Assembly: GCA_964016885.1 (NCBI GenBank)
Contig: OZ024740.1
Coordinates: 190,712,001 to 190,776,000 of the forward strand
DNA from: Eledone cirrhosa
Lineage: Eukaryota
Length of the DNA: 64,000 bases
Direction of reading: 5' to 3'
Shown here: piece by piece, positions 12,677-56,217 of the stretch
Layout: each line of letters begins with the position of its first letter
Position numbering within the stretch: position 1 is the stretch's first letter
Position numbers and translations under genes: made by a program
The notes under the pieces: model-generated
Databases searched by the model: none
The model's input: the letters and a program-made list of their open reading frames with translations, nothing else
Told to the model about the DNA's origin: nothing

Positions 12677-12712
12677 TACATTTATTATATACATATATAT
12701 ATATATATATAT

Positions 12713-13328
12713 ATAATTGGATATATGAGAGGGATGAACACATATCAAATTATACATGTGTTCCAATTGCAAATGACCAAGTTACAAGTTAGCTAGGTTG
12801 AAGAAATACTAATTTAAAACAATATGGTTTGCCTGACTCGATTTAAAGTAATAAATCAATAAAAATAACAAACGTATATCGGGCAATAGCCTTTGAGACC
12901 CAGACAGGCCAAAATCTATTTCGCAAGAATTATTAAGTGAAAGCCAGAATTCCTGTGCACATCTGCGGTTATCCAGGAACATTCGTACCTTTCACTTCAA
13001 AGGATCTAAATCCAGCTGCTATATTTAGCGGCATGAGTATGAAACGCGCTAGGCGTTTATAACTGCATTTCGTTCAGTCTTCTTAGATCCTTTGAAGCTA
13101 AAGGCACGAATGTTCATGGATACCCGCATATGAGCACAGGGATTCTGGATTTCAAAGGCTATTGCCCGATATAGGTTTGTTATTTTTATTGATTTATTAC
13201 TTTAAATCGAGTCAGGCAAACCATTTTATTTTAAATTAGTATTTTTTCAACCTAGCTAACTTGGCCATTGGCAATTGGAACACCTGTATACTTATAAGTG
13301 TGTTCATCCCTCTCATATATCCGATTAT
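12713..13328. repeat. ~600-bp imperfect fold-back (inverted repeat) element flanked by (TA)n
   Basis: 12713-13010 is the reverse complement of ~13083-13328 with scattered substitutions and a ~45-bp indel. Confidence 0.9.
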
Positions 13329-13406
13329 ATTACACAGCTCGGAAAGATTCCCTTCTTTGAGCTACTCAATTGTAAAATAGTATTTTGTGTTTATAACTCA
13401 ATCTAT

Positions 13407-15608: not shown

Positions 15609-15845
15609 GTAATAATAATAAAGTTGAAGACTAAAATGCAAAGAGGGCTCGATAAGGATAAATATATATCAAATATATAAGAACCGTAGATCAAATATTT
15701 ATTAAAATAACAGATTAAAGTTTAAGCAAAGAATCGCTGCTTTCACCCTTAACGGGATCTTCTGAAACTCCCGTTTCACAAGATCCCGTTAAGGGTGAAA
15801 GCACCGATTCTTTGCTTAAACTTTAATCTGTTATTTTAATAAATA
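15609..15845. mobile_element. Fold-back pseudo-LTR-like element with two inverted variant hammerhead-like motifs
   Basis: Arms 15695-15768 and 15773-15845 are reverse complements; homologous to 8856-9018 and 31631-31830; flanked by (TA)n. Confidence 0.75.
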
Positions 15846-15861
15846 TATATATATATAAATT

Positions 15862-16659: not shown

Positions 16660-16781
16660 GGAGAGAGAGAGAGAGAGAGAGAGAAAAAATTGAGGTTGGC
16701 ACATGGAATATATAAGAAACAGAAAATTTTTTTGTGAAAAAACATATAATTTTATAAGGTAAGAAAAGAATAAAGGGTATA

Positions 16782-16831
16782 AAAAATGACCGGTTTCGAT
16801 GGGTCTGAAAAAGCCATCTTTTCAAATGTTG
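16782..16831 (-). ncRNA. Minimal hammerhead ribozyme, U3-A8 core variant
   Basis: Minus strand: CAACAT-TTGAAAA-GATGG(11 nt)CCATC-GAAA-CCGG-TC-ATTTT. Palindromic stem III ACCGGT; one mismatch in stem I. Lies in an inverted segment just upstream of the Penelope ORF. Confidence 0.65.
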
Positions 16832-17154
16832 ATTAATATTAAGAAAAATTAATAATAAGAAGAGTTAAAATTTGAGATTTGAAAATTCAAGTATAAAATT
16901 CAGTGTGGGATTTCATAGTAGTTTTCATCTTGGTAGCAGCAAGTTGACTGCTGAGTGCCTTTCTGGTAGTGAATGAGGAGTTATTTGTGGGGAATGTTTT
17001 TTTTATAAATGTCAGATTTAGCAATGGCCAGATGGCCAGCTGCTGGTCAGTGAGGGGGTGGAAGCAATATACATACATATATCTCCCTGTGGTCGGTAGG
17101 AGAGGGGAAAGTGATAGAAATGGATTTAGTGCACTTACACCTATATACACACAC

Positions 17155-18965
17155 ATTTAACATTTTAGAAAACAACACATACTATGAAAAAACAGAAAAC
17201 TACAAACACACCAAAACAATGGGGAACCTTTTGACCGTACTGAATAAATACCGCAACAGCTTAACCATAAAAGAGTGTAACTATATAAGCCACTTCAAAT
17301 GCAATACAATCTCTTTTTACGGCTTACCTAAACTCCACAAATGTAAACTCATAAATGATGCATGTGACACCTCAACCAACAATTACATTGAACTAACACC
17401 ACCAGAAGACCTAAAACTCAGGCCAATTATAGCAGGCCCTACATGTGAAACCCACAGACTTAGCAACTTTCTGGACATCCTACTGAAACCCTTTCTACAA
17501 CATATACAGAGCTACATACGAGATGACCTTGACATGCTGAAACACCTCCCTAAAACAGTAAGTGCAAATACAATTCTTGTCTCCTTTGACGTAATAAACC
17601 TTTACACAAACATACCCCACAACTATGGAATAACAGCAGTCCAATACTGGCTTAACACACACCCATCAGAAATACCGACACGCATCAATAAAGATTTTAT
17701 CACTGACGGACTCCGCTTTATCCTACAAAATAACTACTTCACATTCAATGGTTCAACATACAGACAAGTATCAGGTACTGCAATGGGAAGGAAAGTAGCA
17801 CCCACATATGCCAACTGGTCATGGGATTCCATGAACAACAATTATACAGTCAGTCCCTTCTCTTATTTGGAGACTCTTTCCACACACACCTCAAAGCCAA
17901 TTGGAAAAGATATCTAGACGACTGCTTTATCCTATGGCAAGAAGACATGAACTAACTTACTATGTTTAAAAACATGATAAACGACATAGATAATAACATA
18001 CAATTCACAATGGAATCCAATCCCAAGGAATTAGCCTTCTTGGATATTCTCATCTCTGTAATAGACGGGACATTAGATACAGATATATTCTATAAACCCA
18101 CAGATTCCAAGCAATACCTCTTTTTCACATCAAGTCACCCAAAACATACAAAACTTAACATTCCTTACAATTTGGCCAAACGTATATGTACCATAGTATC
18201 AGTAAACGGGAGCAAAGACTAAAGGAACTAAAAGACACCCTTATCTTAAGAGCTTTTCCACTTGAAATAATCAACAATGGAATAGACAGGGCAAAACACC
18301 TAAATCCCCATCAACTTAACAATCCAAAACAGAAAACCACACTCAACACCCTGCCATATGTATCCACTTTCAACCCCAGAAATACCGAAATGTTTGATCA
18401 TCTACACACAAACCTCCCCATCCTACTTAAAGATGTAACAATGAAGTCTATTCTTGAAACACACAAGATCCTTAAAAGTAAAAGACAACCCAAATCACTA
18501 AAACGCATTCTCTCTGGACCAAATATACCCAAACCAATCCTCAACCATACAGTTACCAAATGTGGTAGAACAAACTGTGTAACGTGCCTCTACCTCACTG
18601 AAGGACAGAAATTTACATTTAAAGATGGCCAAACATTTACAGTAAAAAACAATTCCACCTGCAAATCGGAGAACTTGATTTACGCAATAACTTGCGGTGG
18701 GTGCAAACACAACTACATAGGACAGACGGGCACCTCATTGCGCAAAAGAATGACCATCCACCGCCAACAAATCCGGGACGCTAACACAAGAAAAATCCCC
18801 TTGAGCAGCCATATTGCGAACTGCGCAGGAATGACACTACCCAACTTTAAAATCTTCCCCTTCTACAAGTGCTCAGATTCGTTCAGACATCAACAAAAAA
18901 TAAACAAAGAAAATCTATTCCTTAACAAATTTAAACCAAAACTAAACGGGTTATCACCCCAATAG
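17155..18965 (+). pseudogene. Penelope-like retroelement ORF: reverse transcriptase + GIY-YIG endonuclease; 5'-truncated, about 2 frameshifts
   Basis: FYGLPKLHK, RPII, LVSFDVINLYTNIP, GTAMG..APTYAN, WKRYLDDCF (~17902-17928), FLDI..FYKPTDSKQYL..SSHP, C-x4-C-x2-C linker, NLIYAITC..C...YIGQTG..LRKRM..H. Confidence 0.95.
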
Positions 18966-19410
18966 AATTGTCATAAAATATAAACACACATACGCACGGA
19001 ATCACTACTATTAAAGACCAGAGACTAATTCTGTAGAATCAGGTTTATTCGTTGACAGACCATGCCTTTGTGTGACCAACACATCCATGTTAAACCCTGC
19101 ACGTGCACACACATATATCTATATATATATGCGCACAAAGAATTCACCACTGTCGGTTGCGGGGCCCAATCTACATGAAGAACTCAATGTGATCAGAATG
19201 ACTTGTATTTTAATTTCACTGTCCCAACTTCTTATATTATGGAAAAATATATGTGTATGTATGTGTATATATATATATATATCTGGAGGCCATTTCTCTG
19301 TGTGTGGGTGTATGTATGTGTATATGTGTGTGTGTGTGTGTATGTGTGTGCATGTGGATGTATGTATTCAATTTTCTCCCTAACCTTCGTTTTATGTAGA
19401 AACTTACCCT

Positions 19411-19473
<63 letters not shown>

Positions 19474-21629: not shown

Positions 21630-21728
21630 AGTATATATATATATTTATATATTTATATATTTTTATATATATATATCTGGAAAGAATTAGATATTCAGAC
21701 AGCTAATTCCGTACTGTATATATATATA

Positions 21729-21781
<53 letters not shown>

Positions 21782-21943
21782 TACGGAATTAGCTGTCTGT
21801 ATACCTAATTCTTTCCATTGGGAATTCTCTGAATTTCAAATCTCCTGATTAGTGAAACCGTCGGTAACGGCAATAGAACACGTGAATATTTAAAACGTAT
21901 TTTAATTTATTTAAAAGATTGTTTGATGATACTTGTGGCGCTG

Positions 21944-22535: not shown

Positions 22536-22575
<40 letters not shown>

Positions 22576-23289
22576 TAAAAAGGAAAGGAAAATGTTGACA
22601 AATGTTTCCCGCTGAGAAATAGTTTAATTAGGAATATGTATAAATTAGTTTTGACTACAAGATACATTTTTTTGACTACAATAATTTTTGCAACCCGAAT
22701 TGGCGCGAAATGTATAGTGCTTATTCACGTGATATTCAAAAACTAATCAGATCTTAAAACCTCATAAGCCACTTTCTTCACATAAAACAGGAAGAATTTC
22801 CAAAACTAATAAGATTAGAGCAAAAATCACGAGCACTCTATTTCAAAAGCACAAGAAATGCGCAATCGGTAAAAACTTAAAACTAAAACTGAATATTAAC
22901 TAATACTTATTACTAATTTATAATTATTCCTAATTAAACTAACTTTCCCTTTCACTAATATATCACCAATTCGTGTGTCACACCTCTATTTTTTTAAATA
23001 TGTATATATATATATATATATCATAAAACATGTCTATAGAATCACAAGATAACATATATACTATTTGCTCTCCCAATTAGCATAATTAACTATATAAAAA
23101 ATCGAATAGACCAAGCTATACGAATGAGGCTTCTATGAAGGAATCTCCGACAAATAACCGAAACTAGCGCTTCCTGTCGGCCGTAGTGGAATATTTATCG
23201 TATATTTCGACAGCGTAATCGCCTAGATATAGTCAACTAAACAGAATTAGGTTTAAAATAAACTAGGAGAAAATAGAATACATTTAAAT

Positions 23290-23377
23290 ACCTCTACCAT
23301 GGTTTCGTCCGTATTTTGAGTTTTCCAATAATTATGTAATAATTATATAAACTCGATCGCCGGATTCTTCAGGAAGC
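23290..23377 (-). ncRNA. Hammerhead ribozyme (unit 1)
   Basis: GCTTC-CTGAAGA-ATCCG(long loop containing a GAGTTT/AAACTC stem)CGGAC-GAAA-CCATGG-TA-GAGGT; palindromic stem III ACCATGGT; GUA site. Confidence 0.8.
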
Positions 23378-23948
23378 TCGCTCATATCTAGACATTACTT
23401 TTTCCAAAGCGATCGCGCCAAGAATTCCTTTCAAAATGGCTGAAAATCGTGACGTAGTCGCGGTCAAGTTGGAAGGGTGTGGTAGTTGCTTACGACTGGT
23501 GGCATGTTTGCTAGAAAGCACAGCACAATACAGCCAAATTTGTATCTCTACCTAGTGGGAGATTATTATATATAAAAGTTTACATATATATATACATACA
23601 CATACATATACGTGTTTTGCAACTGGTCACTTTGTGGCTCAATGAAAAATTAATAAATTAAACAATCAGAGCTATATATCATAAAACATGTCTATAGAAT
23701 CACAAGATAACATATATACTATTTCCTCTCCCAATTAGCATAATTATCTATATAAAACAATCGAATAGACCAGGCTATACGAATGAGGCTTCTATGAAGG
23801 AATCTCCGACAAATAACCGAAACTAGCGCTTCGCGTCGGCCGTAATGGAATATTTATCGTATATTTCGACAGCGTAATCGCCTAGATATAGTCAACTAAA
23901 CAGAATTAGGTTTAAAATAAACTAGGAGAAAATAGAATACATGTAAAT

Positions 23949-24036
23949 ACCTCTACCATGGTTTCGTCCGTGTTTTGAGTTTTCCAATAATTATGTAATA
24001 ATTATATAAACTCGATCGCCGGATTCTTCAGGAAGC
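23949..24036 (-). ncRNA. Hammerhead ribozyme (unit 2)
   Basis: Same fold and intact core as 23290-23377. Confidence 0.8.
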
Positions 24037-24593
24037 TCGCTCATATCTAGACATTACTTTTTCCAAAGCGATCGCGCCAAGAATTCCTTTCAAAATGGCT
24101 GAAAATCGTGACGTAGTCGCGGTCAAGTTGGAAGGGTGTGGTAGTTGCTTACGAATGGTGGCATGTTTGCTTGAAAGCACAGCACAATGCAGCCAAATTT
24201 GTATCTCAACCTAGTGGGAGATTATTATATATAAAAGTTTACATATATATATACATACACATACATATACGTGTTTTGCAACTGGTCACTTTGTGGCTCA
24301 ATGAAAAATGAATAAATTAAACAATCAGAGCTATATATCATAAAACATGTCTATAGAATCACAAGATAACATATATACTATTTCCTCTCCCAATTAGCAT
24401 AATTATATATATAAAACAATCGAATAGACCAGGCTATACGAATGAGGCTTCTATGAAGGAATCTCCGACAAATAACCGAAACTAGCGCTTCGCGTCGGCC
24501 GTAGTGGAATATGTATCGTATATTTCGAGAGCGTAATCGCCTAAACAGAATTAGGTTTAAAATAAACTAGGAGAAAATAGAATACATTTAAAT

Positions 24594-24681
24594 ACCTCTA
24601 CCATGGTTTCGTCCGTGTTTTGAGATTTCCAATAATTATGTAATAATTATATAAACTCGAGCGCCGGATTCTTCAGGAAGC
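24594..24681 (-). ncRNA. Hammerhead ribozyme (unit 3)
   Basis: Same fold and intact core as 23290-23377. Confidence 0.8.
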
Positions 24682-25680
24682 TCGCTCATATCTATACATT
24701 AAATTTTCCAAAGCGATCGCGCCAAGAATTCATTTCAGAATGGCTAAAAATCGTGGTCTATTCGATTTTTTATATAGTTAATTATAATTGGGAGAGGAAA
24801 TAGTATATATTTTATCTTGTGATTCTATAGACATGTTTTATGATATATAGCTCTGATTGTTTAATTTATTATTTTTTCATTCAGCCACAAAGTGACCAGT
24901 TGTAAAACACGTATATGTATGTGTATGTATATATATATGTACACTTTTATATATATATATATATATATGTATTCATATATGTATGTATGTGCGTGTGCTT
25001 TTGGCTGCAGATGTATATATACGCACATATATAATTGATATTCAGGCAAACATTCCAATAATGTAACTTGCATTCAATCAAAATTAATATTTTTAACAAA
25101 TAAATCGATATTTTACATGCTTTATATGAAAGTAGAAGCGATTAAGAGAAAGCATTGAAAAAATCTTTATTCTTTGTAATATTGGAAATTGTGATAAATC
25201 TGTATATACAATAAATAGTTTTTTCTTCTTTCACTTCCAGTTTCATCTAATGTTACAATTAAATCTTGTGCTGATCTCTTCTTAAACTTTGATATTAAAT
25301 TTGAAATGCTTGCCAGGAATACTTTTACTGCATTATATATCTTCTATTCTTTTCGGTTTTACATAAACTAAATTACAAAACAATATCACAGATGAAATTT
25401 TACGATTGAGTAAACCCTACAGTATTTGTGTCTGTGAATCAATAATCTAAACTATCATTCACCAAACAGTTTTCCGTTCTTATTTCCTTTTGTAATTTGC
25501 AATCGTGCCTTGTGAAATGCTATTGATTCGTTTTAGTCGTTCTTTTTTATACATTACATCACTTCGTATTTGAAGTCATTCAGGCGTACATATTTCATAC
25601 ACACGCGAAGACATAAAAGCATATATATATATATCAAATTTTAACATACAAGCACACACACACACACACACACACACATA

Positions 25681-38621: not shown

Positions 38622-40796
38622 ATGTGCGTGTGTGTGTGTACAATGCTATTAAGTTACTATATATTTATACAGACATTTTAATCTATAGATTCAATATACA
38701 TTTATTTGATTAATGAGGAGGCACATAAATGAGAAAACCATATGTAGTTATATTTATAAACTTGTCAAATTGCAAAACAACATAATTTAAATCATTTTAA
38801 CTCACCACAGATATACAAGAAAAATAATCAAATGTGTCTATGTTAGCTGAAATTCTGTCTGAATATATATACTGTGCTTTTATTTATGTGCTCAACATCA
38901 TAGTTTTAATACGAAATCAAGAAAATATAATACGCGAATCGTGTTTACATTTCGAATGTGTACACGAAAGCTTCATTCACAGCTTCAACGGATTAAATCG
39001 GAACAAGCATTTGCTCCTAGCCATACATTCATGTTATGCTTCACAGATTGTACAGTCTATATTTCATTCTAGAACTTAAATATTCTAAGTGGCAAATATT
39101 AGGTTGCAGTAAAGACATTTACAATTGTTTATTAAATCTAATTCTAATGTTTACAGACTAAAACCATATAAGTCGTGTGGAATGCACGCATTCTTCTTTT
39201 ATAAGCTTATGTATGTATGTAAGTATGTAATCTGTAATACAGGAATTGTGAATAAAATTACATGAAAATGAGATGTTTTCAAAGATTATATAAAATGTAA
39301 ATTCGGCATAATTCCAACAACTATGTAATGCGTATGCAATTGCTATTATAGCGTCATACGCGATTAGACATATTTTCACTATTGTACCTTTGTTGAAGTA
39401 GGTATATCATTCGAATGAAGAAAGGAGAGTCCTTGATATATTTCTCTGAATATGAAAACTGAAAACTAACAAGCTTAGTTAATTTTTTGAATAATGGCAT
39501 TCTCAAATCGAATGGCTATAATATAGTTGCTTCGTGACTGTAATATAAGCCCAGGGCGTGTTCGCTTTCAAACCAACTCCATCTATACTAAGGAATGTAA
39601 TATTTCTGGGTATAAAAAGAAGAATTGTCGACAATGAGAGTTTAATAAATGCATATTTCGATATTTGCATATCAGCAGTATCAACCATTTACCACAACAT
39701 TCTCTCAAGGATTTAAACATTTTAATGCGCTCTCCTTGATTCTATGATCTCGTAGATTGGTAATGGCTGAGATTCTACAAAATGTAAGGTTTGGCATATG
39801 GTGGAAATATCGCAATAAAGATGTTTTGTATAAAGATTTGAGAGACTAATCTAATTAGTTTCAAATTAAAATTTCACTGAGACCTATATTTATATTGAAA
39901 ATAATAAATATATTACGTATCAGTTGGATGAGTATATGATACCTGATATAAGACACACAAAAATGTTAACCTGATATTGGACATCAGCATTTATTTATTA
40001 TTTAATCAATTTAAAATTCCGTATAGAGCTAGTAAACCAGGGTAGACTCGAGAATTATCGAGTAATTCTTACAGTTGATAATCAAACATAGCTAGTTAGA
40101 GAACAATAATATGAAATCACTAAAAAAACGGAAAACACTTAAATAACAAAACGATGTGCACTGTCGGATTACATTTATACCTCAAACCCCGGTGAGTTAC
40201 ATATATTTTCTGCAACATAAAAGAAACCATATATTTGAATAGATTTGCATATGCCTACATGTTACATGTGACAGGAAATAACTAATCCTAGTTGTCTTCA
40301 TAAACATTTGAATCTTACACGATTTCTATATCTCCAGAATTCAAGAATTTCAATTGGGCTCTCAATTGAGAAACTACCAATACTTCAAGGGATTATACTA
40401 AATCGAATCAGTGGACCTTACCACTGTTGCTGGGACAAACCCACCCTGTTTGACCTAAACCACATTCTCTTTGACCTCAACCACGTTCTGTTTGGATTTG
40501 AAAATGCCAGATGTATACCCTTAGTCACTACGCTTGTACATTCAGGGTTGGTGGCGCTATTTAACCCATATTTAACCTGTAGTTGGGTAGATGGTCGTTG
40601 ACTGATAAATTAATCCACCCTATGAATGGATCATGTTTTTGTGCTGCTGAGGTTCCACTTACCCTCCTCGCTACATCAGCGTGTGATGGAAAAGCCGGTT
40701 TATTGTCAGACTACTCAAACATGAATCAACTAGATTACATGGTACGACTAGCACGTAGAAGCCTAACATAACCAAAGGGTTTATATATATATATAT

Positions 40797-41934
40797 AAAG
40801 AATTAGTATATCTAGTAACATATATATACACAGATGCATACTTATGCTAGCAAATATATAGGTTTTGTCTTAGTAACTTTGTGGTTCAATGCATGGGGAT
40901 GCAGAACAATAATATGAGAGACGTAAAATAAGAAAATTATAAAATTAACTTACTTACTAAAATTTCACCCCAACTAATTAGTTTCTGAAAGGGAATAAAC
41001 ATAGTTTCCGAAGAAACGTACGCAGAAGCCCTTCGTCATCAGGGAAGTCTATTCTCAGTTAAGTTTCTAGGCAATACGTGGACACAGGGAACTTATACAA
41101 ACATAATTCAGTGGATGGAAAAAAGCAAAGCGTGGACTAAATTCCAAGCCATTGAAAAAATCACTGCCTACTGCGTCGGTGGCAAATTCAAAAGAATCAG
41201 TCACGTGATTTCGAGGTCAATCAGTGAAGAGTGGTGTGTTAAGAAGACAGCGGCCGGACCGTTACTATAGTAGCAGTTTTGGCCAATTTTTGCTCGACAA
41301 AATAAATTTGGAGATAATTATAAAGAATTAGTATATCTAGTAACATATATATATATACACAGATGCATACTTATGCTAGCAAATATATAGGTTTTGTCTT
41401 AGTAACTTTGTGGTTCAATGCATGGGGATGCAGAACAATAATATGAGAGACGTAAAATAAGAAAATTATAAAATTAACTTACTTGAACCACAAAGTTACT
41501 AAGACAAAACCTATATATTTGCTAGCATAAGTATGCATCTGTGTATATATATGTTACTAGATATACTAATTCTTTATAATTATCTCCAAATCTATTTTGT
41601 CGAGCAGAAATTGGCCAAAACTGCTACTATAGTAACGGTCCGGCCTCGATGTCACGTGACTGATTCTTTTGAATTTGCCACCGACGCAGCAGGCAGTGAT
41701 TTTTTCAATGGCTTGGAATTTAGTCCACGCTTTACTTTTTTCCATCCACTGAATTATTTTTGTATAAGTTCCCTGTGTCCACGTATTGCCTGGAAACTTA
41801 ACTGAGAATAGACTTCCCTGATAATGAAGGGCTTCTCCGTTTCTTCGGAAACTATGTTTATTCCCTTTCAGAAAGTAATTAGTTGGAGGGGAATTTTAGT
41901 AAGTAAGTTAATTTTATAATTTTCTTATTTTACG

Positions 41935-41942
<8 letters not shown>
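40797..41942 (-). mobile_element. ~525-bp non-coding unit: 1.3 direct copies plus ~460-bp inverted copy; hammerhead-bearing
   Basis: AAAGAATTAGTATATCTAG at 40797 and 41322; 41484-41942 is inverted; (TA)n flanks. Confidence 0.85.
40967..41047 (-). ncRNA. Hammerhead ribozyme with extended stem III and GUU site
   Basis: CTTCC-CTGATGA-CGAAG(17 nt)CTTCG-GAAA-CTA(~25 nt)TAG-TT-GGGG. The inverted copy 41813-41889 has stem I CTTCC/GGAGG but core CTGATAA. Confidence 0.6.
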
Positions 41943-42011
<69 letters not shown>

Positions 42012-42965: not shown

Positions 42966-44049
<1,084 letters not shown>

Positions 44050-47792: not shown

Positions 47793-47833
47793 TATTGGAC
47801 TAGTTTCGATGTTATTACATTTCATCAGCAATA
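47793..47833 (-). ncRNA. Minimal hammerhead ribozyme (41 nt)
   Basis: TATTG-CTGATGA-AATGT-AATA-ACATC-GAAA-CTAG-TC-CAATA: perfect 5-bp stem I, palindromic ACTAGT stem III, GUC site. Confidence 0.8.
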
Positions 47834-48089: not shown

Positions 48090-51000
48090 CTAGAATTAAA
48101 GCCCGGCGTTGCTCGGTGTCAGTAAGTTACCAAAGTTAGGTTGCACCACCCATTTTATTAACACCACTATTTTGTCTGCCAGGCACTGGTTGAATGAATT
48201 GCAAACCATCACTGCCGAAGCAGGAGCTGCGCCAGCAGTGACAATTGTAGTTTTGCCTATTGATATTATCTCTGTGCAAAGACGTATTCAAATTTATTGT
48301 TTCACAGTACTTGCGCAACACGCGCGTAGACGATTCCAGCCGAACAACAGAGCTGCGATGGAGTTGTTCTGCATGACATGTTTTAACGGGGGAGGGAGTG
48401 GATTGAAGGAACCGCAAACAGGGGCCTGAAAACATTGTCGAATTATGACAACCAAAACAGAGGAAGAGGGGTAATTGTATGGTTGGTGCATCATGTATGT
48501 CGGACGTAGAAGATGAGCCTGCTGCTGTGCCGACAGAGGGAGGGAAATAGAGCTGAGCGGAGGCCAGGTGTTGGTGAACTGTGAAGTAATTGCAGGGAAC
48601 CGCCTAAAAATGTATATCCCGTCATTAAAGCATTGTTCACGCTTTCAGAGTCACACGGAGGTTAAATACTAACCTGTCCACGGTCATCCGAGGCACACCA
48701 AACGGGGTTTGGTGAGGAGCAACAGCTGATATTTGGGTAGGGTCGGAGTTGCAATGAAGCTTTGTAACGCCGCGAGAATCAGCCTTTGCACGGCAGATGG
48801 TGGGGAGTGTCCAGTACATTGCAGTGAAGGTTAACCTACTTAGAAAGTACTCACGAAAAGGCAAAACATAACAAAAATAAAAAAATAATAAAATTAGGAA
48901 TCGAGGTAGTCCTATAAAACCTCCTTGTACAGAATGTATTTTGTTTTTCCTTGCGGAATGAAAGCTAAATCATCACTCTTGCTGCAGAGACGCGAGTAGC
49001 CAACGTAAAGCTGACCATGAGAGAAACACGTCTCCCTCAAATGTATTACCGCGACAGACTAGTGTTTGCCCCTGCGCTTTGTTAATTGACATTGCGAAGC
49101 ATGGCCTGACCGGGAATTGGGACCTCCGAAATGTGATAGGCAGGTCTGCTCCTGATGTGAAAAAATGGATCTTTGGTATGAGCACAACCTTGCCCCGACC
49201 GCACCCAGTGATTATCGTGGCCTCAATCAGATTGGCAGCTAAGGACTTAACGACCAAACGTGTGCCATTGCATTATTTCGTCGGACCCAAATTTCGAATG
49301 AGCATTATAGGGTACCAACTTTAAGTTTCAAAATGTGTGGAGTTAACCCGGGGGCCTCAAAGGATTTTAGTATCTCTATTGAATAGTTGATGACGTCTGG
49401 AGTTCTATCGATCGACCTATACACGTAGCCATCTCCAAGAATTAGTTTTAGCATTTGATCATTAATATGGTTAACAGTTTTATTCCTCGGGGCCAGAATC
49501 CCCATTGGGCAAGCCATCCCATATTCTGATAATTTGCTTGGAGATCTGGGAACACTGCATCCCTGAGATCAGAAGGCGTACTAACAACGGTACAAAGTGA
49601 GTCGATGGCAATATTACCCTTTTCATCCCCGGGCGCTTTGCCTTCGCCAAGTGCGAGGAGGGTGTGAGCAAATGCGGTCGATGCGATATCACCTCGCATA
49701 TGAACACGCATGTTAGTGTGAAGTTTCAGAGTCTTCACTAGAGGCCACAATGCGTATGACTTAAGACACGCCCGTACTGCATCAGGTTTAGTCCCCTTGC
49801 GAATAACGGGAAGCGTTTGCCTGAAGTCCCCTGAAAGAAGAAGTGTTATGCCTCCCATGGGAGCCATAGAGTCTTTCATGTCTCTCAGAGTTCTATCTAG
49901 CGCCTCAAGAGCACCTCTGTGGGCCATCGTGCATTCGTCACAAACGATAAGCTTGCATCGTCTGAACATTTCTGCCTGATCGGAGTTCTTACTGATGTTG
50001 CAAGTGGGTGTCTCAGTCTTCGCTAAGTCAAGCGGGAGCTTGAAATAGGAGTGAGCTGTCCTGCCGCCCGGCAACAAAGTAGCCGCAATTCCAGATGATG
50101 CCACAGCTAAGGCAATGTCTTCTGTTCGCCTAATCTCAGCTAATATTAATTTGGTACAAAAGATTTCCCAGTCCCCCCAGGAGCGTCCAGGAGAAAAATT
50201 CCCCCAGCTTTGCCCCAGACAGAATTAACAGAGGAGTTGTAAGCGAATTTCTGTTCTGGAAGGAGCTTTGGCTCCTTCTCCGCTATGTACTGGGCAAGAT
50301 CGTCAACATTATAAGATGTCTCACGCAGCAAATCCGAAGACATAGTGGTTGTGCCTTCCCGGTTTGTTGAAGGTAGGCGATACACCGCCAACGCACGACC
50401 GCCCATATCGAGAACAGTATCTTCGATTTCAAGCAGCGCCCTGTTGTAAATGAGGTCACTGTACCCGACCTCTATCGATGGGTTTCGCAAGTGAGCGTGA
50501 CGCACATATAATCTTTGTAGCTAAGCCATAAAGAGGCCGGATCACCCAAGTCGCACCATAGGAGTAGAATAGCGAAAAGCGATCTTAGTCTTTTAGGAGA
50601 TTTCAACAAAAAGCTCTCTGCCATAGTGGTGCCCCATTGTGAATTATCCTCCAAAAGGCCACCCCTAAAGCAGGCTTCTCGGAAAGTATCACATAATTCA
50701 CAGGCAACAGTTCTTATGTCTCGAAAGCTTAGTGGGCCAAAATCCTCATGAAGGAGAATGCGCAGGTGAAAACACTCATGCTGGTTGGGAGGTACAGTGT
50801 ACACTCTTCCTAGACAACTGTCAAACTTGACACTAGGATGTCCTTCAACATCCTGACCTGACATCCTACGCACCCATGTGTTGTTTGACCACACGTAGTA
50901 GGACGGGACCTGAGGATATGAAAGTGTTTTTTGCAAATGTGTCAAGTTGGCAAAGCGTAAACAAACAGTCAAAGTTGTTTCTTTGGGATTGGCCGCCAAA

Positions 51001-54000
51001 TGAGCAGCAGTCTGTTTTGTAAAGTAAGCCCGCTGGCCGTTTTCCAAATGAACCGCTAGTATGATGGCGGGGTGACTTTGCTGAAGTGGAAACCCGAATA
51101 TCCGCGAAAAAGCTTCACCGCTGCTGATATATCGACGTGCCAAGTACTCCGCGACCTCGTCCCTGCTATTGTCGTTTTAAAGGCCGAACATGGCAATGTC
51201 GGATCCCTGTTAACTTATTTACATATGTACTTTATCGACTTCACTGAATGACAGAACTCCACATCTATAGAGTGTTGAAAGTTTTCATCAGAAATGGACA
51301 GTACGGGACCACCCACCTATTATCAACTTGATGACCCCGTAACGTCATAGTGAATGCAGCGTTCTCAGGCCGCCTTCGTCTGTGCAGTGGGTATCCGTCG
51401 TCGCTGGTCTGGGTCTTCTCAACAAACCTCTTTGGGTTCCGTTTAGTGCAGACATGGTCCTTGTGGCATGAAGAGAACTCTTGAAAACCGGGACCGCACG
51501 GACAGACCACCATGTGTGCCTTCACAATGTCATCTATAACTGTAGGGTCTATTTTGGTGACCAACCAAACCAAAATGTGCGCGTGTGGCAACCCTCTCTT
51601 GTGCCACTCAACAGTATACATGTGGCACCTAACAGGCACGAAAACCGTCCCTTTTTTTTATTAATTCAATTAGCTTAGCCAGCTTCTGCCTGAAAACCCT
51701 GGCAATAATATCATGCCGATGGCAGTGCTGCTGCCCTGGGATAAGTTCCCGTGTAACCTCAACCCACTTGGGGTTACACGTAAATGTGATGAATAAATAG
51801 GGGCGCCCATAATGCTGAACGAACGTCATAGCGTCCTGTGTTCGCTCTTACATGTACCCCCCCCCCCGTATAGGTTGAGGGGAGAATTCACATTTTGCCG
51901 ATGTTCCGGGGGTCAGTGTCATTCCTGATGCTGTCACGCAAATGGATGCAGGAGTCTGAGCGCAGCTGCTTCTGATTCAATTTTATGAAGCACACTCTCT
52001 CCGACTCCATCTTTGCAGCCATGTCAACTGCAAACTGGTAAAACAGTTCCCGTGACCTGTGCAGGGTGCTAAAATCGTTAGGCCTCGTCATGAAGCGGTA
52101 TGAGTATAAAGCCATGCAGGAAACAGTTTTAGATGTCGTAGCAGTGGGCTCGTTTAGTTTGCACCGAGGAATGCCGAAATGGTACCCTTCTTCTCCGTAT
52201 GCAAAAATAAGGGGATACTTCAGGGCGTCGTATGAACGACGCGTCTCATTAATGCGTCGAAGACCACTGTCCCGACTTTAAAGAACTATGTCTCGCTTTT
52301 TGTGCTGTTCGCCATGGATAACTACGGCCTCTTCATTGCACGAAGGAGCATTATAACGGCGTGCGTGTTCCCAAGAAGGTCTTTTGTCAGCATCGATGAC
52401 AATGGTGAAGTTTGGTGAAGGATGTGTTTCCAATGCGTATTTGAAACTGCGAATAAAACTGTTGTGCTCATGAAGCATGTTTTGAAGACCGAGCAGCACG
52501 TCCCTTTCAAAAGTGTCAGCGTCAGAGTTTGCAGGTGTTGGAATAACGCCGAACCACGCATCAACTTGCCTACTGTAGTTAGAAATGAAGTAAATTTAAA
52601 GGAGCGAAGGCTTGCAATTTTATAATGGCTGGAGAGTCCCAATAAGATGGTGCACCTGCCCCTGGACCTTGAAAGTAGGCATCCAACCACTTTCTCTGAC
52701 AACGTTAGATCCGAAAGAAGTCATTTGAAACGCACAATTGTACTTCCTGGTGAGTTGAAGGAATTTGGATGATCTTGAGGTAGAAACAGTAAGTAGTTCC
52801 TGGTGGTTCCTCAAGAGGGGGCAAGCTGACCTTACCCTTTAAGCAGCACATTGTAGGTGGCTCCCCAGCCCACTTTTTAGCATTGCATAATTTGCAATTG
52901 TAGCTCATTTCCCCTATATTTATGTCGGCACGCATCGAGTAGTTAACGTTGTGCTCATACTTGAAAGCCAGTGGGTGCCAGTATGGGCTGTTGGGGCTCG
53001 TCACACCGCGGGAAGCTTCTTGTCGTCGACTGTTCCGCTCCAACGTAGGATGTTGCTCCTGTGGGTCGTGGGAAGCTCTCGCAGCAGTAGCAATCCTAAT
53101 GGAGCGCTCGTCTGCATCTTCAGAAACCATGGAATTAGTCATAGCCGAAGCGTTCCTAGCAAGGCGATTCGTCCGCTGTTCCAAACCTTCCAAAGTCCTG
53201 GACGCAGAAGTAGCCGCAGCGTTTCTAGTCAGTCGAGCCGCCCTTTGTTCCGGGCCCTCTGAATCCCTGGAAGCAGCAGTAGCAGCAGCGTTTGTATTCA
53301 GGCGAGTCGTCCTTTGTTCCGGGCCCTGTGAAGCCCTGGAAGTAGCAGTAGAAGCGTTTTTTTTTTAATGACGTATCGCCCGCTCTGAATCGCACATCTC
53401 AGCACGTCGCGAGGTGTCGTATGAAGCCATCTTGGTTAGGCGTGCGGTGCGTTGTTGAAAACTTTCAGCAGCTCTGCATTTCGCTGAACGTAAGGCGCTC
53501 TAGGAAAGTCTTAAATCAGTTTCCTCGGGGGACACGTTTGCTGTAATCGCCCTCTGCGCCGCCGCTGACGCGGTATGGCGACCCAGTCGACTTCTCTTTT
53601 TAGGTGGCATTTTATGTGAAAAAGAAAGGGTGAAAGTTACTTTTACAGCAAAATTAACTTGGAAAGTATAAGGCTGAAAAATGTCTGCGTTCCGCAGGGG
53701 GAAATGGGAGAACGACCGACAAATAAATAACTCACAGTTTGTTGAAAGCGCGCTTCTGTCAGCAATTTGAAGCTGTTGGGCCAAAAATCCCTATGTGTTT
53801 TTTTGTTTCACTCAATACACGTGTAAATTTGTTATACACAAAATGTAATTGTGTGTGAGTTGAATGATAGATGTTTTAAAAAAAGATGTTAAGCGTATAT
53901 AAGAGATTGTTGATTAAATATAACTGTTGGTTTCGAATAATTGTAGTTTGGTATAAAATGTAAGCCACATGTATTTAACGTTTGTCTCTGTCTCTCACTC

Positions 54001-54420: not shown

Positions 54421-54484
54421 TATATATATATGTAAGCATGTATGTATACGTACATACATATATGTATACAGACGTACAGTAGCA

Positions 54485-54582
<98 letters not shown>

Positions 54583-54647
54583 CATGTACACATACATATA
54601 TGCACGTATCAGTTTAGTGGACGCTCAACTATCTGGCAGAAAGGTAT

Positions 54648-54690
54648 ACGGTGCTGATGATAGCTAACAAGCTTGAAACTAGTACATCGT
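54648..54690 (+). ncRNA. Minimal hammerhead ribozyme (copy 1)
   Basis: ACGGTG-CTGATGA-T-AGCT-AACA-AGCT-T-GAAA-CTAG-TA-CATCGT: 6-bp stem I, palindromic ACTAGT stem III, GUA site. Confidence 0.88.
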
Positions 54691-54843
54691 TCCTGTGTCA
54701 GTGTTGAACAAAAAGGTAACGTTGCTGCCTTAACACCGTACGGCATAAATTCAGGCTGTTCAGTTTGTTTACAAACGAACAAAAAGGTCGTTATAATAAG
54801 CGTCCGCTAAACTGATACGTGCATATATGTATGTGTACCTGTA

Positions 54844-54915
<72 letters not shown>

Positions 54916-55153
54916 CATGCTACTGTACGTCTGTATACATATATGTATGTACGTATACATACATACTTACATTTAAGTATGTGCCGTACTAAGAGTGAGA
55001 AATGAAATTTCGTTTTCATTTTATTACAACTTAATGTTTTCGGTACGCCTGACCGACTTAACTCACTCGATATGCAAATTAGGCTGCTCGGCCGTTAATT
55101 TTCATAATGAGAGTATATACTTTCTAACGTTCAACTATCTGGCAGAAGGGTAT

Positions 55154-55196
55154 ACGGTGCTGATGATAGCTAACAAGCTTGAAACTAGTACATAGT
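55154..55196 (+). ncRNA. Minimal hammerhead ribozyme (copy 2)
   Basis: Same core and stems; one stem I mismatch (CATAGT). Confidence 0.85.
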
Positions 55197-55346
55197 TCCT
55201 TGTCAGTGTTGAACAAAAAGGTGACGTGGTTGCCTTAACACCGTACGGCATAAATTCAGGCTGTTCAGTTTGTTTACAAACGAACAAAGCGGGCTTTATA
55301 ATAAGCGTCCGCTAAACTGATACGTGCATATATGTATGTGTACCTG

Positions 55347-55490
<144 letters not shown>

Positions 55491-55729
55491 CATGCTACTG
55501 TACGTCTGTATACATATATGTATGTACGTATACATACATACTTACATTTAAGTAAGTGCCGTACTAAGAGTGAGAAATGAAATTTCGTTTTAATTTTTAT
55601 TACAACTTAACGTTTTCGTTACGCCTGACCGACTTAACTCACTCAATATGCAAAGTAGGCTGCTCGGCTGTTAATTTTCATCAGGAAAGTATATACTTTC
55701 GAACGTTCAACTATCTGGCAGAAGGGTAT

Positions 55730-55772
55730 ACGGTGCTGATGATAGCTAACAAGCTTGAAACTAGTATATCGT
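55730..55772 (+). ncRNA. Minimal hammerhead ribozyme (copy 3)
   Basis: Same core and stems; first stem I pair is G-U (TATCGT). Confidence 0.85.
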
Positions 55773-55923
55773 TCCTGTGTCAGTGTTGAACAAAAAGGTG
55801 ATGTAGTTGCCTTAACACCGTACGGCATAAATTCTGGCTGTTCAGTTTGTTTACAAACGAACAAAGCGGGCGTTATAATAAGCGTCCGCTAAACTGATAC
55901 GTGCATATATGTATGTGTACATG

Positions 55924-56005
<82 letters not shown>

Positions 56006-56217
56006 CATGTACACATACATATATGCACGTATCAGTTTAGCGGACGCTTATTATAACGCCCGCTTTGTTCGTTTGTAAACAAACTGAACAGCCAGAATTT
56101 ATGCCGTACGGTGTTAAGGCAACTACATCACATGTAAGTAAGTGCCGTACTAAGAGTGAGAAATGAAATATCGTTTTCATTTTATTACAACGATATATAT
56201 ATATATATATATATATA

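Follow-up and report, generated by a model that had tools for sequence, protein, structure and literature searches.

A hammerhead-bearing 660-nt repeat of Eledone cirrhosa as a probable non-autonomous Penelope-like element

Introduction

How a short tandem repeat, with a predicted hammerhead ribozyme in each unit and an inverted copy of itself at one end, comes to be inserted in a (TA)n tract is the question raised by an array at 23015-24955 of a 64,000-nucleotide (nt) stretch of the Eledone cirrhosa genome (GenBank assembly GCA_964016885.1, contig OZ024740.1, positions 190,712,001 to 190,776,000 of the forward strand), which was analysed at its full length and is referred to here as the window. 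Very probably, the repeat of about 660 nt is a non-autonomous Penelope-like element (PLE), a retrozyme without long terminal repeats (non-LTR retrozyme), that is copied by the reverse transcriptase (RT)-endonuclease of a coding PLE, since the unit codes for no protein and its insertions bear the signature of PLEs.

Architecture of the array

The minus strand of 23015-24755 holds a head-to-tail array, the main arm, of 2.66 units that are about 96% alike; in unit positions counted from the predicted hammerhead cut, it comprises 503-659, 1-659, 1-659 (with 14 nt deleted) and 1-281, its 3' end being the 'short' fixed end. Self-BLAST aligned 23015-24110 with 23673-24755 at 96.3% identity over 1,097 nt and placed an inverted partial copy of the unit (182-387) at 24754-24955 on the plus strand, 202 nt long and 95% identical over 206 columns. 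This inverted 5' arm ends at the 'long' fixed end and meets the main arm head-to-head with an overlap of 2 nt. Its tail of 106 nt (24850-24955, plus strand; unit 282-387) lies between the two fixed 3' ends and would correspond to the interval between two reverse-transcription start sites. An earlier, sequence-only reading of the window had described about 2.6 direct units of 659 bp with an inverted arm on the 5' side, a description that holds well, while the limits it gave to this real element, 23021-24950, are corrected here to 23015-24955. The spacing from cut to cut is 659 nt and then 645 nt, the second because of a 14-nt deletion. Accordingly, full unit A (23295-23953, minus strand) measures 659 nt and full unit B (23954-24598, minus strand), with its deletion near 24540, 645 nt; the two have locus-private variants in common. 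The array is bordered by (TA)n target tracts at 23003-23014 on the left and 24956-24968 on the right. The left tract ends an older insertion, in that about 22540-23002 is the 3' end remnant of another PLE family, with a short inverted arm, and the array sits in the terminal TA tract of this remnant.

A dispersed and non-coding family

A simple tandem duplication confined to one locus, the contingency raised in the sequence-only reading, does not describe the repeat: in the scanned assembly (3.0 Gb, 1,796 contigs), a 19-mer of the ribozyme has 1,172 exact matches and a 17-mer near the 3' end has 2,739, counts of motifs rather than loci, with no match for either reversed control. Nineteen natural monomers from cut to cut were found, which are 626-723 nt long, alignable from end to end, 70-98% identical, 32-36% in GC content and devoid of an open reading frame (ORF). 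Open frames in the doubled unit reach 70 codons at most, and neither it nor the monomers contain an RT or GIY-YIG ORF, which rules out an autonomous PLE. The family includes at least two young subfamilies that differ by 30%, with distances from the column majority of 2.0% and 1.4%; the second is 69.5% identical to that of the window. Matches to the family motif were absent from viral contigs and numbered four in metagenomes, all without the 5' core.

Most of the retrozyme traits that were compared are present, namely non-coding, low-GC tandem units that each carry a type I hammerhead and a dispersed, multi-copy family in which some loci have at least two ribozymes. The high self-pairing of retrozyme monomers is not: about 60% of the monomer is paired, four of six circular folds lie within 1 standard deviation of eight shuffles and the other two nearly 2 standard deviations below, and the linear fold has a z of -0.38.

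Insertion signature

The ends of the segments, mapped in 82 position-ordered loci, are restricted, with 51 at unit position 281, 51 at 387 and 23 elsewhere. A (TA)n tract adjoins 46/51 of the ends at 281 and 44/51 of those at 387 (90/102 for the fixed ends together), compared with 2/23 of the ends elsewhere. Both fixed positions coincide with short AUAU runs. Since the longest stretch of TA in the unit, at about 360-370, goes unused, AUAU pairing alone would not appear to select the site. The two ends are also shared out between the arms. There were 54 head-to-head pairs, from which 16 with an end elsewhere were dropped, and the 38 kept comprise 31 mixed pairs (one short and one long end), 6 long-long pairs and 1 short-short pair. 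The second subfamily has its ends at 302 and 397 and a tail of 95 nt, and all 12 of its clean pairs (14 seen) are mixed, so that 43/50 two-armed insertions of both subfamilies are mixed (p=2e-7 against 50%). The window locus obeys the same rule of one end per arm.

Partial tandems, variable 5' truncation and inverted 5' arms, all present in the family, are insertion traits of PLEs. In PMC8557442, PLE insertions are reported to have a partial tandem structure, an inverted copy truncated at the 5' end and a tail of 30-40 bp that is often one-sided, with a bias towards (TA)n, and PMC11167929 places the tail between two RT start sites, with both strands cut and extended. Compared with these descriptions, the ends, the tail and the (TA)n target of the present family point therefore to PLE machinery; none of these three traits figured in the sequence-only reading. 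Coding PLEs of the same genome likewise have two ends at TATA runs, which are 39, about 40 and 67 nt apart, so that their tails measure 39-67 nt against 95-106 nt in the family.

The hammerhead motif and its long stem II

Each unit carries, on the minus strand, GCTTC-CTGAAGA-ATCCG..CGGAC-GAAA-CCATGG-TA-GAGGT, that is, a stem I of GCUUC and GAGGU, the CUGAAGA box, a stem II domain of 59 nt, the GAAA box, the ACCAUGGU palindrome and GUA. All three motifs were found as the sequence-only reading had placed them, with predicted cuts after the A at 23295 (copy 1, 23288-23379), after 23954 (copy 2, 23947-24038) and after 24599 (copy 3, 24592-24683). In copy 1, the stem II domain occupies 23307-23365 and stem III, formed by the palindrome ACCATGGT, 23296-23303. 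The core (CUGANGA..GAAA..UH) with stems I, II and III is present in all three copies, and by core and order the motif is a type I hammerhead, for which cleavage is predicted; the same scan of shuffled loci returned no match. The insert had been put at about 47 nt, but it measures 49 nt from ATCCG to CGGAC and 59 nt between the core boxes. As had been noted, core and palindrome are unchanged in the three copies, although three substitutions do hit the stem II extension. Between copies that differ by no more than 2-6%, an identical core says little on its own, and support comes from conservation across the family. In 26 arms picked by the 3' 17-mer alone, the ribozyme being ignored (one row is empty over it), conservation reaches 96.9% in the core, 97.2% in the palindrome and 95.8% in basal stem II, as against 85.5% in the stem II extension and 90.1% in the 5' flank. 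The highest values belong to two words located 40-70 nt 5' of the ribozyme core, AGCCATTTT (99.1%) and GGCGCGAT (97.5%), which lie at 23412-23441 on the minus strand and are repeated at 24071-24100 and 24716-24745. They are putative promoter elements, and we take them to resemble YY1 and E2F sites.

The unusual feature of the motif is its stem II. In a survey of 125 motifs with a pattern that permitted 40-66 nt, the domain measured 45-65 nt, most commonly 59 nt (62 motifs) and 49 nt (37), and a stem II of 47-59 nt is retained, with compensatory changes, in every subfamily (70-98% identical). It folds as a basal helix of 4-5 bp, an internal loop ending AAAAU/C-purine, which presumably sits at the position of the canonical loop 2, and a distal hairpin; the folding z is -2 or below against mononucleotide shuffles in 17/25 rows. 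The 59-nt form appears to derive from a short ATAATTATT duplication in the distal loop. A covariation check, of the sort proposed in the sequence-only reading, came out in favour of the hammerhead fold: across 25 rows, 89.1% of cells are paired and 21 cells are changed on both sides, a value reached by 0/500 shuffles, a control that is lenient because the rows are related. In the same rows, the number of pairs with a two-sided change (6/19) is not significant, as 37/500 shuffles score as high. A long stem II also occurs outside this 660-nt family, since the fetched DNA contains hammerhead motifs of other palindrome types, whose stem II measures 25-31, 34-36, 49-51 and 53 nt, with no match in shuffled DNA.

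A pattern with a stem II of 8-16 nt gave six matches (control 1), one of which is a family member. This lone copy (L204:1490-1550; G000:C4:180645165) has lost the extension and has a stem II of canonical size with an AAAUA loop. It was rejected as an ancestral form, because it occurs once and its sister copies carry 49 nt (26/28 motifs), and for the same reasons it is read as a derived deletion that failed to spread. This failure is weak evidence (n=1) that the extension is needed.

Template and history of the insertions

Subfamily markers, compared in 59 loci, agree between the two arms of an insertion at 76/77 positions (53.7 expected) and between direct repeats at 268/276 (190 expected). 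Judged by these markers, both arms of an insertion come from one source. With the window locus and locus L030 left out, direct repeats differ at 154/8,571 sites (1.80%) and arms at 108/5,919 (1.82%; p=0.90), and hence the repeats were as alike at birth as the arms. Among arms with a fixed end, 49/77 cross the cut site and 2/77 stop within 10 nt of it; 33/86 arms are longer than one unit and 1/86 longer than two, and they continue around the unit for up to 1,999 nt. Such crossing, together with the lack of a pile-up of 5' ends at the cut, means that cut linear monomers were not the template. The best account of the uniform repeats would be a circle or a template jump, and a circular template for the family is somewhat favoured. 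The rolling reverse transcription proposed in the sequence-only reading stands in so far as the family is a multi-copy retroelement whose RT passes the cut and more than one unit; it does not extend to the third unit of the window.

The array in the window seems to have a later history of its own. Full units A and B share ten rare variants, seven of which are missing from the 5' partial unit, the 3' partial unit or the inverted arm wherever these cover them, while one is uncovered elsewhere in the insertion and two (positions 94 and 243) are common to the 3' partial unit. A 31-mer with three of the variants occurs twice in the genome, both times at this locus, and thus no daughter copy with those three variants was found genome-wide. 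From these private variants and the 31-mer, the third unit is likely to stem from a later local duplication or conversion. We consider it probable that 1.66 units with the inverted arm were inserted, that mutations followed and that one unit was then duplicated in place, the alternatives being conversion or duplication in the assembly; contigs from three sequencing runs of one sample yielded short pieces over the repeat and none that bridges the array. With the conserved words ahead of the first ribozyme, the arrangement of the locus is that of a potential source.

Coding PLEs of the genome

PLE ORFs are abundant in the genome (24,361 first-look candidates, many with 777-codon frames), and a cysteine linker precedes their GIY-YIG domain, as PMC8557442 gives for Neptune and Nematis. 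Several coding PLEs carry words similar to AGCCATTTT and GGCGCGAT upstream of the ribozyme position, and in the sampled families, which are part of the total, these short words are the only sequence kinship between the unit and the pseudo-LTR of a coding PLE. One coding PLE lies in the window at 16684-19415, with an RT broken into two frames and a GIY-YIG domain with the cysteine linker (17054-18965). It has an inverted arm of its own, with the main arm at the long end of its family and the inverted arm at the short end, and a hammerhead with a U3-A8 core that a CUGANGA search overlooks. A tandem copy of the same family at L239:1850-5357 has a period of 4,855 nt and apparently a further ORF upstream, in a different frame; where this ORF meets the 777-codon RT frame, a TTTTTTAGGG run is a possible frameshift site.

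Comparison with known elements

Elements of this kind have already been described, a point that the sequence-only reading lacked; the long ribozyme arm and long tail of the present family are distinctive. Metazoan non-LTR retrozymes (PMC7229834; preprint 10.64898/2026.07.22.740005; see also PMC6765202 and PMC6155905) share non-coding head-to-tail units of less than 45% GC with one type I hammerhead each, are mostly monomers to dimers, co-occur with PLEs and have been proposed to be moved by them. The unit length falls within the range of 51-972 bp given in the preprint and exceeds the 170-400-nt circles shown for invertebrate retrozymes. In contrast to retrozymes, for which circles have been seen, the family is known here from DNA, is not strongly self-paired and has a stem II of 47-59 nt, and its two fixed ends with inverted arms are not among the retrozyme traits in the available text of PMC7229834 and the preprint. 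A plant-type LTR retrozyme, with a type III hammerhead in LTRs, a primer-binding site and polypurine tract (PBS/PPT) and a 4-bp target duplication, is ruled out by the type I order and the tandem units; target duplications are unreadable inside (TA)n.

EN+ PLEs of the Neptune type (PMC4209133, PMC8557442) share the partial tandem, the inverted 5'-truncated arm, the tail at one end, the (TA)n target, the palindromic short stem III and a hammerhead near the 3' end, whereas the family has no RT or GIY-YIG ORF and a tail of 95-106 nt instead of the published 30-40 nt. It also differs from the coding PLEs sampled here, which have a U3-A8 core and a short stem II, in its C3-G8 core and long stem II. 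For PAc, a Poseidon element of the green anole, PMC11167929 describes two internal start sites that bound the tail, a ribozyme upstream of them, cutting of both strands in AT-rich DNA and a predicted dimeric enzyme, all as would apply to the family; however, the PAc start sites lie inside the ORF and are not homologous to the target, whereas the family ends lie on AUAU runs able to pair with a (TA)n primer. Non-autonomous Chlamys elements such as MRC1 (PMC8557442) offer a parallel as non-coding PLE derivatives with pseudo-LTRs and multicopy head-to-tail insertions, although most Chlamys lack a canonical hammerhead and have a 3' end like that of their helper, and no such helper was found for the family. 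The same source mentions that the two halves of the core are separated by 35-50 nt in eight Naiad cases, with no fold given in the available text. Literature searches turned up no account of this family, no conserved 47-59-nt stem II and no count of the rule of one end each, although the long stem may exist in print or in supplements.

Alternative explanations

Several observations weigh against the assignment to a PLE-copied retrozyme with a working ribozyme. No Rfam hammerhead model matched in the window at the gathering score, nor in 22900-25100 at E<=10, and the Rfam E-value matches were microRNA models on TA repeats; the same blindness bears out the expectation of the sequence-only reading that length-limited motif searches overlook a long stem II. 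The G10.1-C11.1 pair that closes stem II is A-C in the subfamily of the window; among 25 rows, 14 have a G-C basal stem II pair and 10 leave it unpaired. Folding of the whole motif is no better than that of shuffles (z 0.05), and the same applies to the monomer. On the side of the helper, no coding PLE with sequence in common with the unit turned up in 30 family-A and 30 GIY-YIG loci, in 39 downstream regions of greater length or in 56 loci read for 4.5 kb on the upstream side, a small sampling in which 150 of 10,596 GIY-YIG candidates were scored, and the hammerheads of coding PLEs, where one was detected (18/39 regions), have a stem II of 10-21 nt and the U3-A8 core reported in PMC4209133. 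In addition, PMC11167929 gives a tail of 30-40 nt, priming independent of homology and ribozyme mutants that left in vitro insertion unaffected, and one of nine tested retrozyme dimers was cleaved in the preprint.

The missing Rfam match, the lack of a folding signal for the whole motif and an activity that is predicted would also fit a satellite that DNA recombination has spread and whose hammerhead-like motif is dead or due to chance. Such an origin is scarcely credible for copies that are scattered over many contigs, stop at fixed 3' positions, are truncated on the 5' side and bear inverted arms, and in view of the covariation result (89.1% of cells paired, 21 two-sided cells, 0/500 shuffles as high) and the empty motif scan of shuffled DNA. 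It is improbable, if less so, that the units are pseudo-LTR fragments of an unsampled coding PLE and the tandems its 5'-truncated partial copies. Their architecture does resemble PLE pseudo-LTRs (PMC8557442, PMC4209133), and a small part of the PLE families was sampled, but all 19 cut-to-cut stretches of 626-723 nt align end to end without an ORF, arms run unbroken around the unit for up to 1,999 nt, and in none of the loci checked does a PLE ORF run on into an arm.

The form of the template is more evenly contested. An uncut linear multimer, from a young source, might serve the PLE enzyme, with the hammerhead cutting rarely or trimming precursors and array length being regained by DNA duplication; we regard this as possible, with a lower probability than the circle. 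It would agree with the absence of a 5' end pile-up at the cut, with stops that become commoner past one unit, as a finite source predicts, with the A-C pair at the base of stem II, with the local DNA duplication at the window locus and with unprocessed RNA as the main in vitro substrate in PMC11167929. Two variant patterns each speak against a single circular molecule: the variant at position 243 is in the main arm of the window locus and missing from its inverted arm, and at locus L286 a variant is in both terminal copies and missing from the inner one, a pattern in favour of a multimer. Yet repeats as alike as arms, with the same markers across subfamilies 25-30% apart, require regeneration from one monomer, the core is kept above its flanks, and circles have been found for related retrozymes of coral, mussel and axolotl (PMC7229834). 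As for the window, the sequence-only reading had all 2.66 units made in one rolling reverse transcription, which now seems doubtful: arms of 2.1 to 2.3 units at loci L281, L283 and L029 and the variants at 94 and 243, common to both full units and the 3' partial unit, would permit it, and gene conversion after a three-pass insertion would yield the same pattern, but seven variants are found in the full units only and three of them occur together nowhere else in the genome.

Proposed cycle

For a retrozyme copied by PLE machinery, the following cycle may be envisaged. Transcription of a locus with at least two hammerheads would start from the conserved words that precede its first ribozyme, and the hammerheads, probably dimeric via the ACCATGGT palindrome, would release unit-length RNA that is closed to a circle, unless the multimer is used uncut. 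The PLE enzyme would nick both strands of a (TA)n tract, and each 3' end would pair with an AUAU run at one of two fixed RNA sites 106 nt apart and prime complementary DNA (cDNA). The cDNAs would pass the cut site and reach lengths of up to about two units, and their 3' ends would then join each other by microhomology, giving an inverted arm, or the (TA)n target, giving a single arm. A more far-reaching version, offered tentatively and more likely wrong than right, is that one circular 660-nt RNA is primed twice, at both AUAU sites, by a single Penelope enzyme dimer, and that the 47-59-nt extension is a required module, as a protein handle or a cleavage brake, marking a large class of PLE-parasite ribozymes hidden from current hammerhead searches. 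Were the twin priming true, every two-armed insertion would record both primings.

Other elements in the window

The window contains further hammerhead motifs. A second tandem family at 54427-56131, with units of about 506-576 nt, a 14-nt stem II, an ACTAGT palindrome and an inverted arm, occurs as six copies in a row at locus L254; it has no BLAST similarity to the array, in line with the lack of kinship assumed in the sequence-only reading. An inverted repeat at 40794-41944 includes a hammerhead-like motif at 41042 (minus strand) with a 50-nt stem II and a ACTAATTAGT palindrome, a type represented by 10 related motifs with a stem II of 49-51 nt in the fetched loci, and hammerhead-like motifs of other families are found at 47828 (minus strand; stem II of 14 nt) and 59193 (plus strand; 36 nt). 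The broken ORFs at 49448-53364 (minus strand), with a PIF1-like helicase (E 1.7e-51) and a 69-nt coding tandem repeat, are likely to be a Helitron remnant. ORF pieces at 43085-43940 (minus strand) are taken to be mariner-type transposase-like; a Pfam search of 43085-43588 gave no match. Nesting of unrelated elements in shared (TA)n tracts is common both across the window and in the fetched loci, and the nested elements often form inverted pairs that are close to perfect, such as those at 12711-13330, 15695-15846, 21678-21817 and 55798-56131.

Significance

How PLEs come to insert as tandems and inverted copies with a tail on one side, what role the PLE hammerhead plays and whether PLEs mobilise animal retrozymes are open questions in the published work cited here. 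To these questions, the family brings insertion-signature evidence for a retrozyme moved by PLE machinery. Because several families here have a stem II of 25-59 nt, length-limited descriptors are likely to undercount hammerheads. The many copies of the family are young, its unit is short and non-coding, its long tail separates the two start sites easily, and it represents a compact substrate for in vitro insertion tests. Together, the long ribozyme arm and the two fixed ends make the insertion route of such elements testable.

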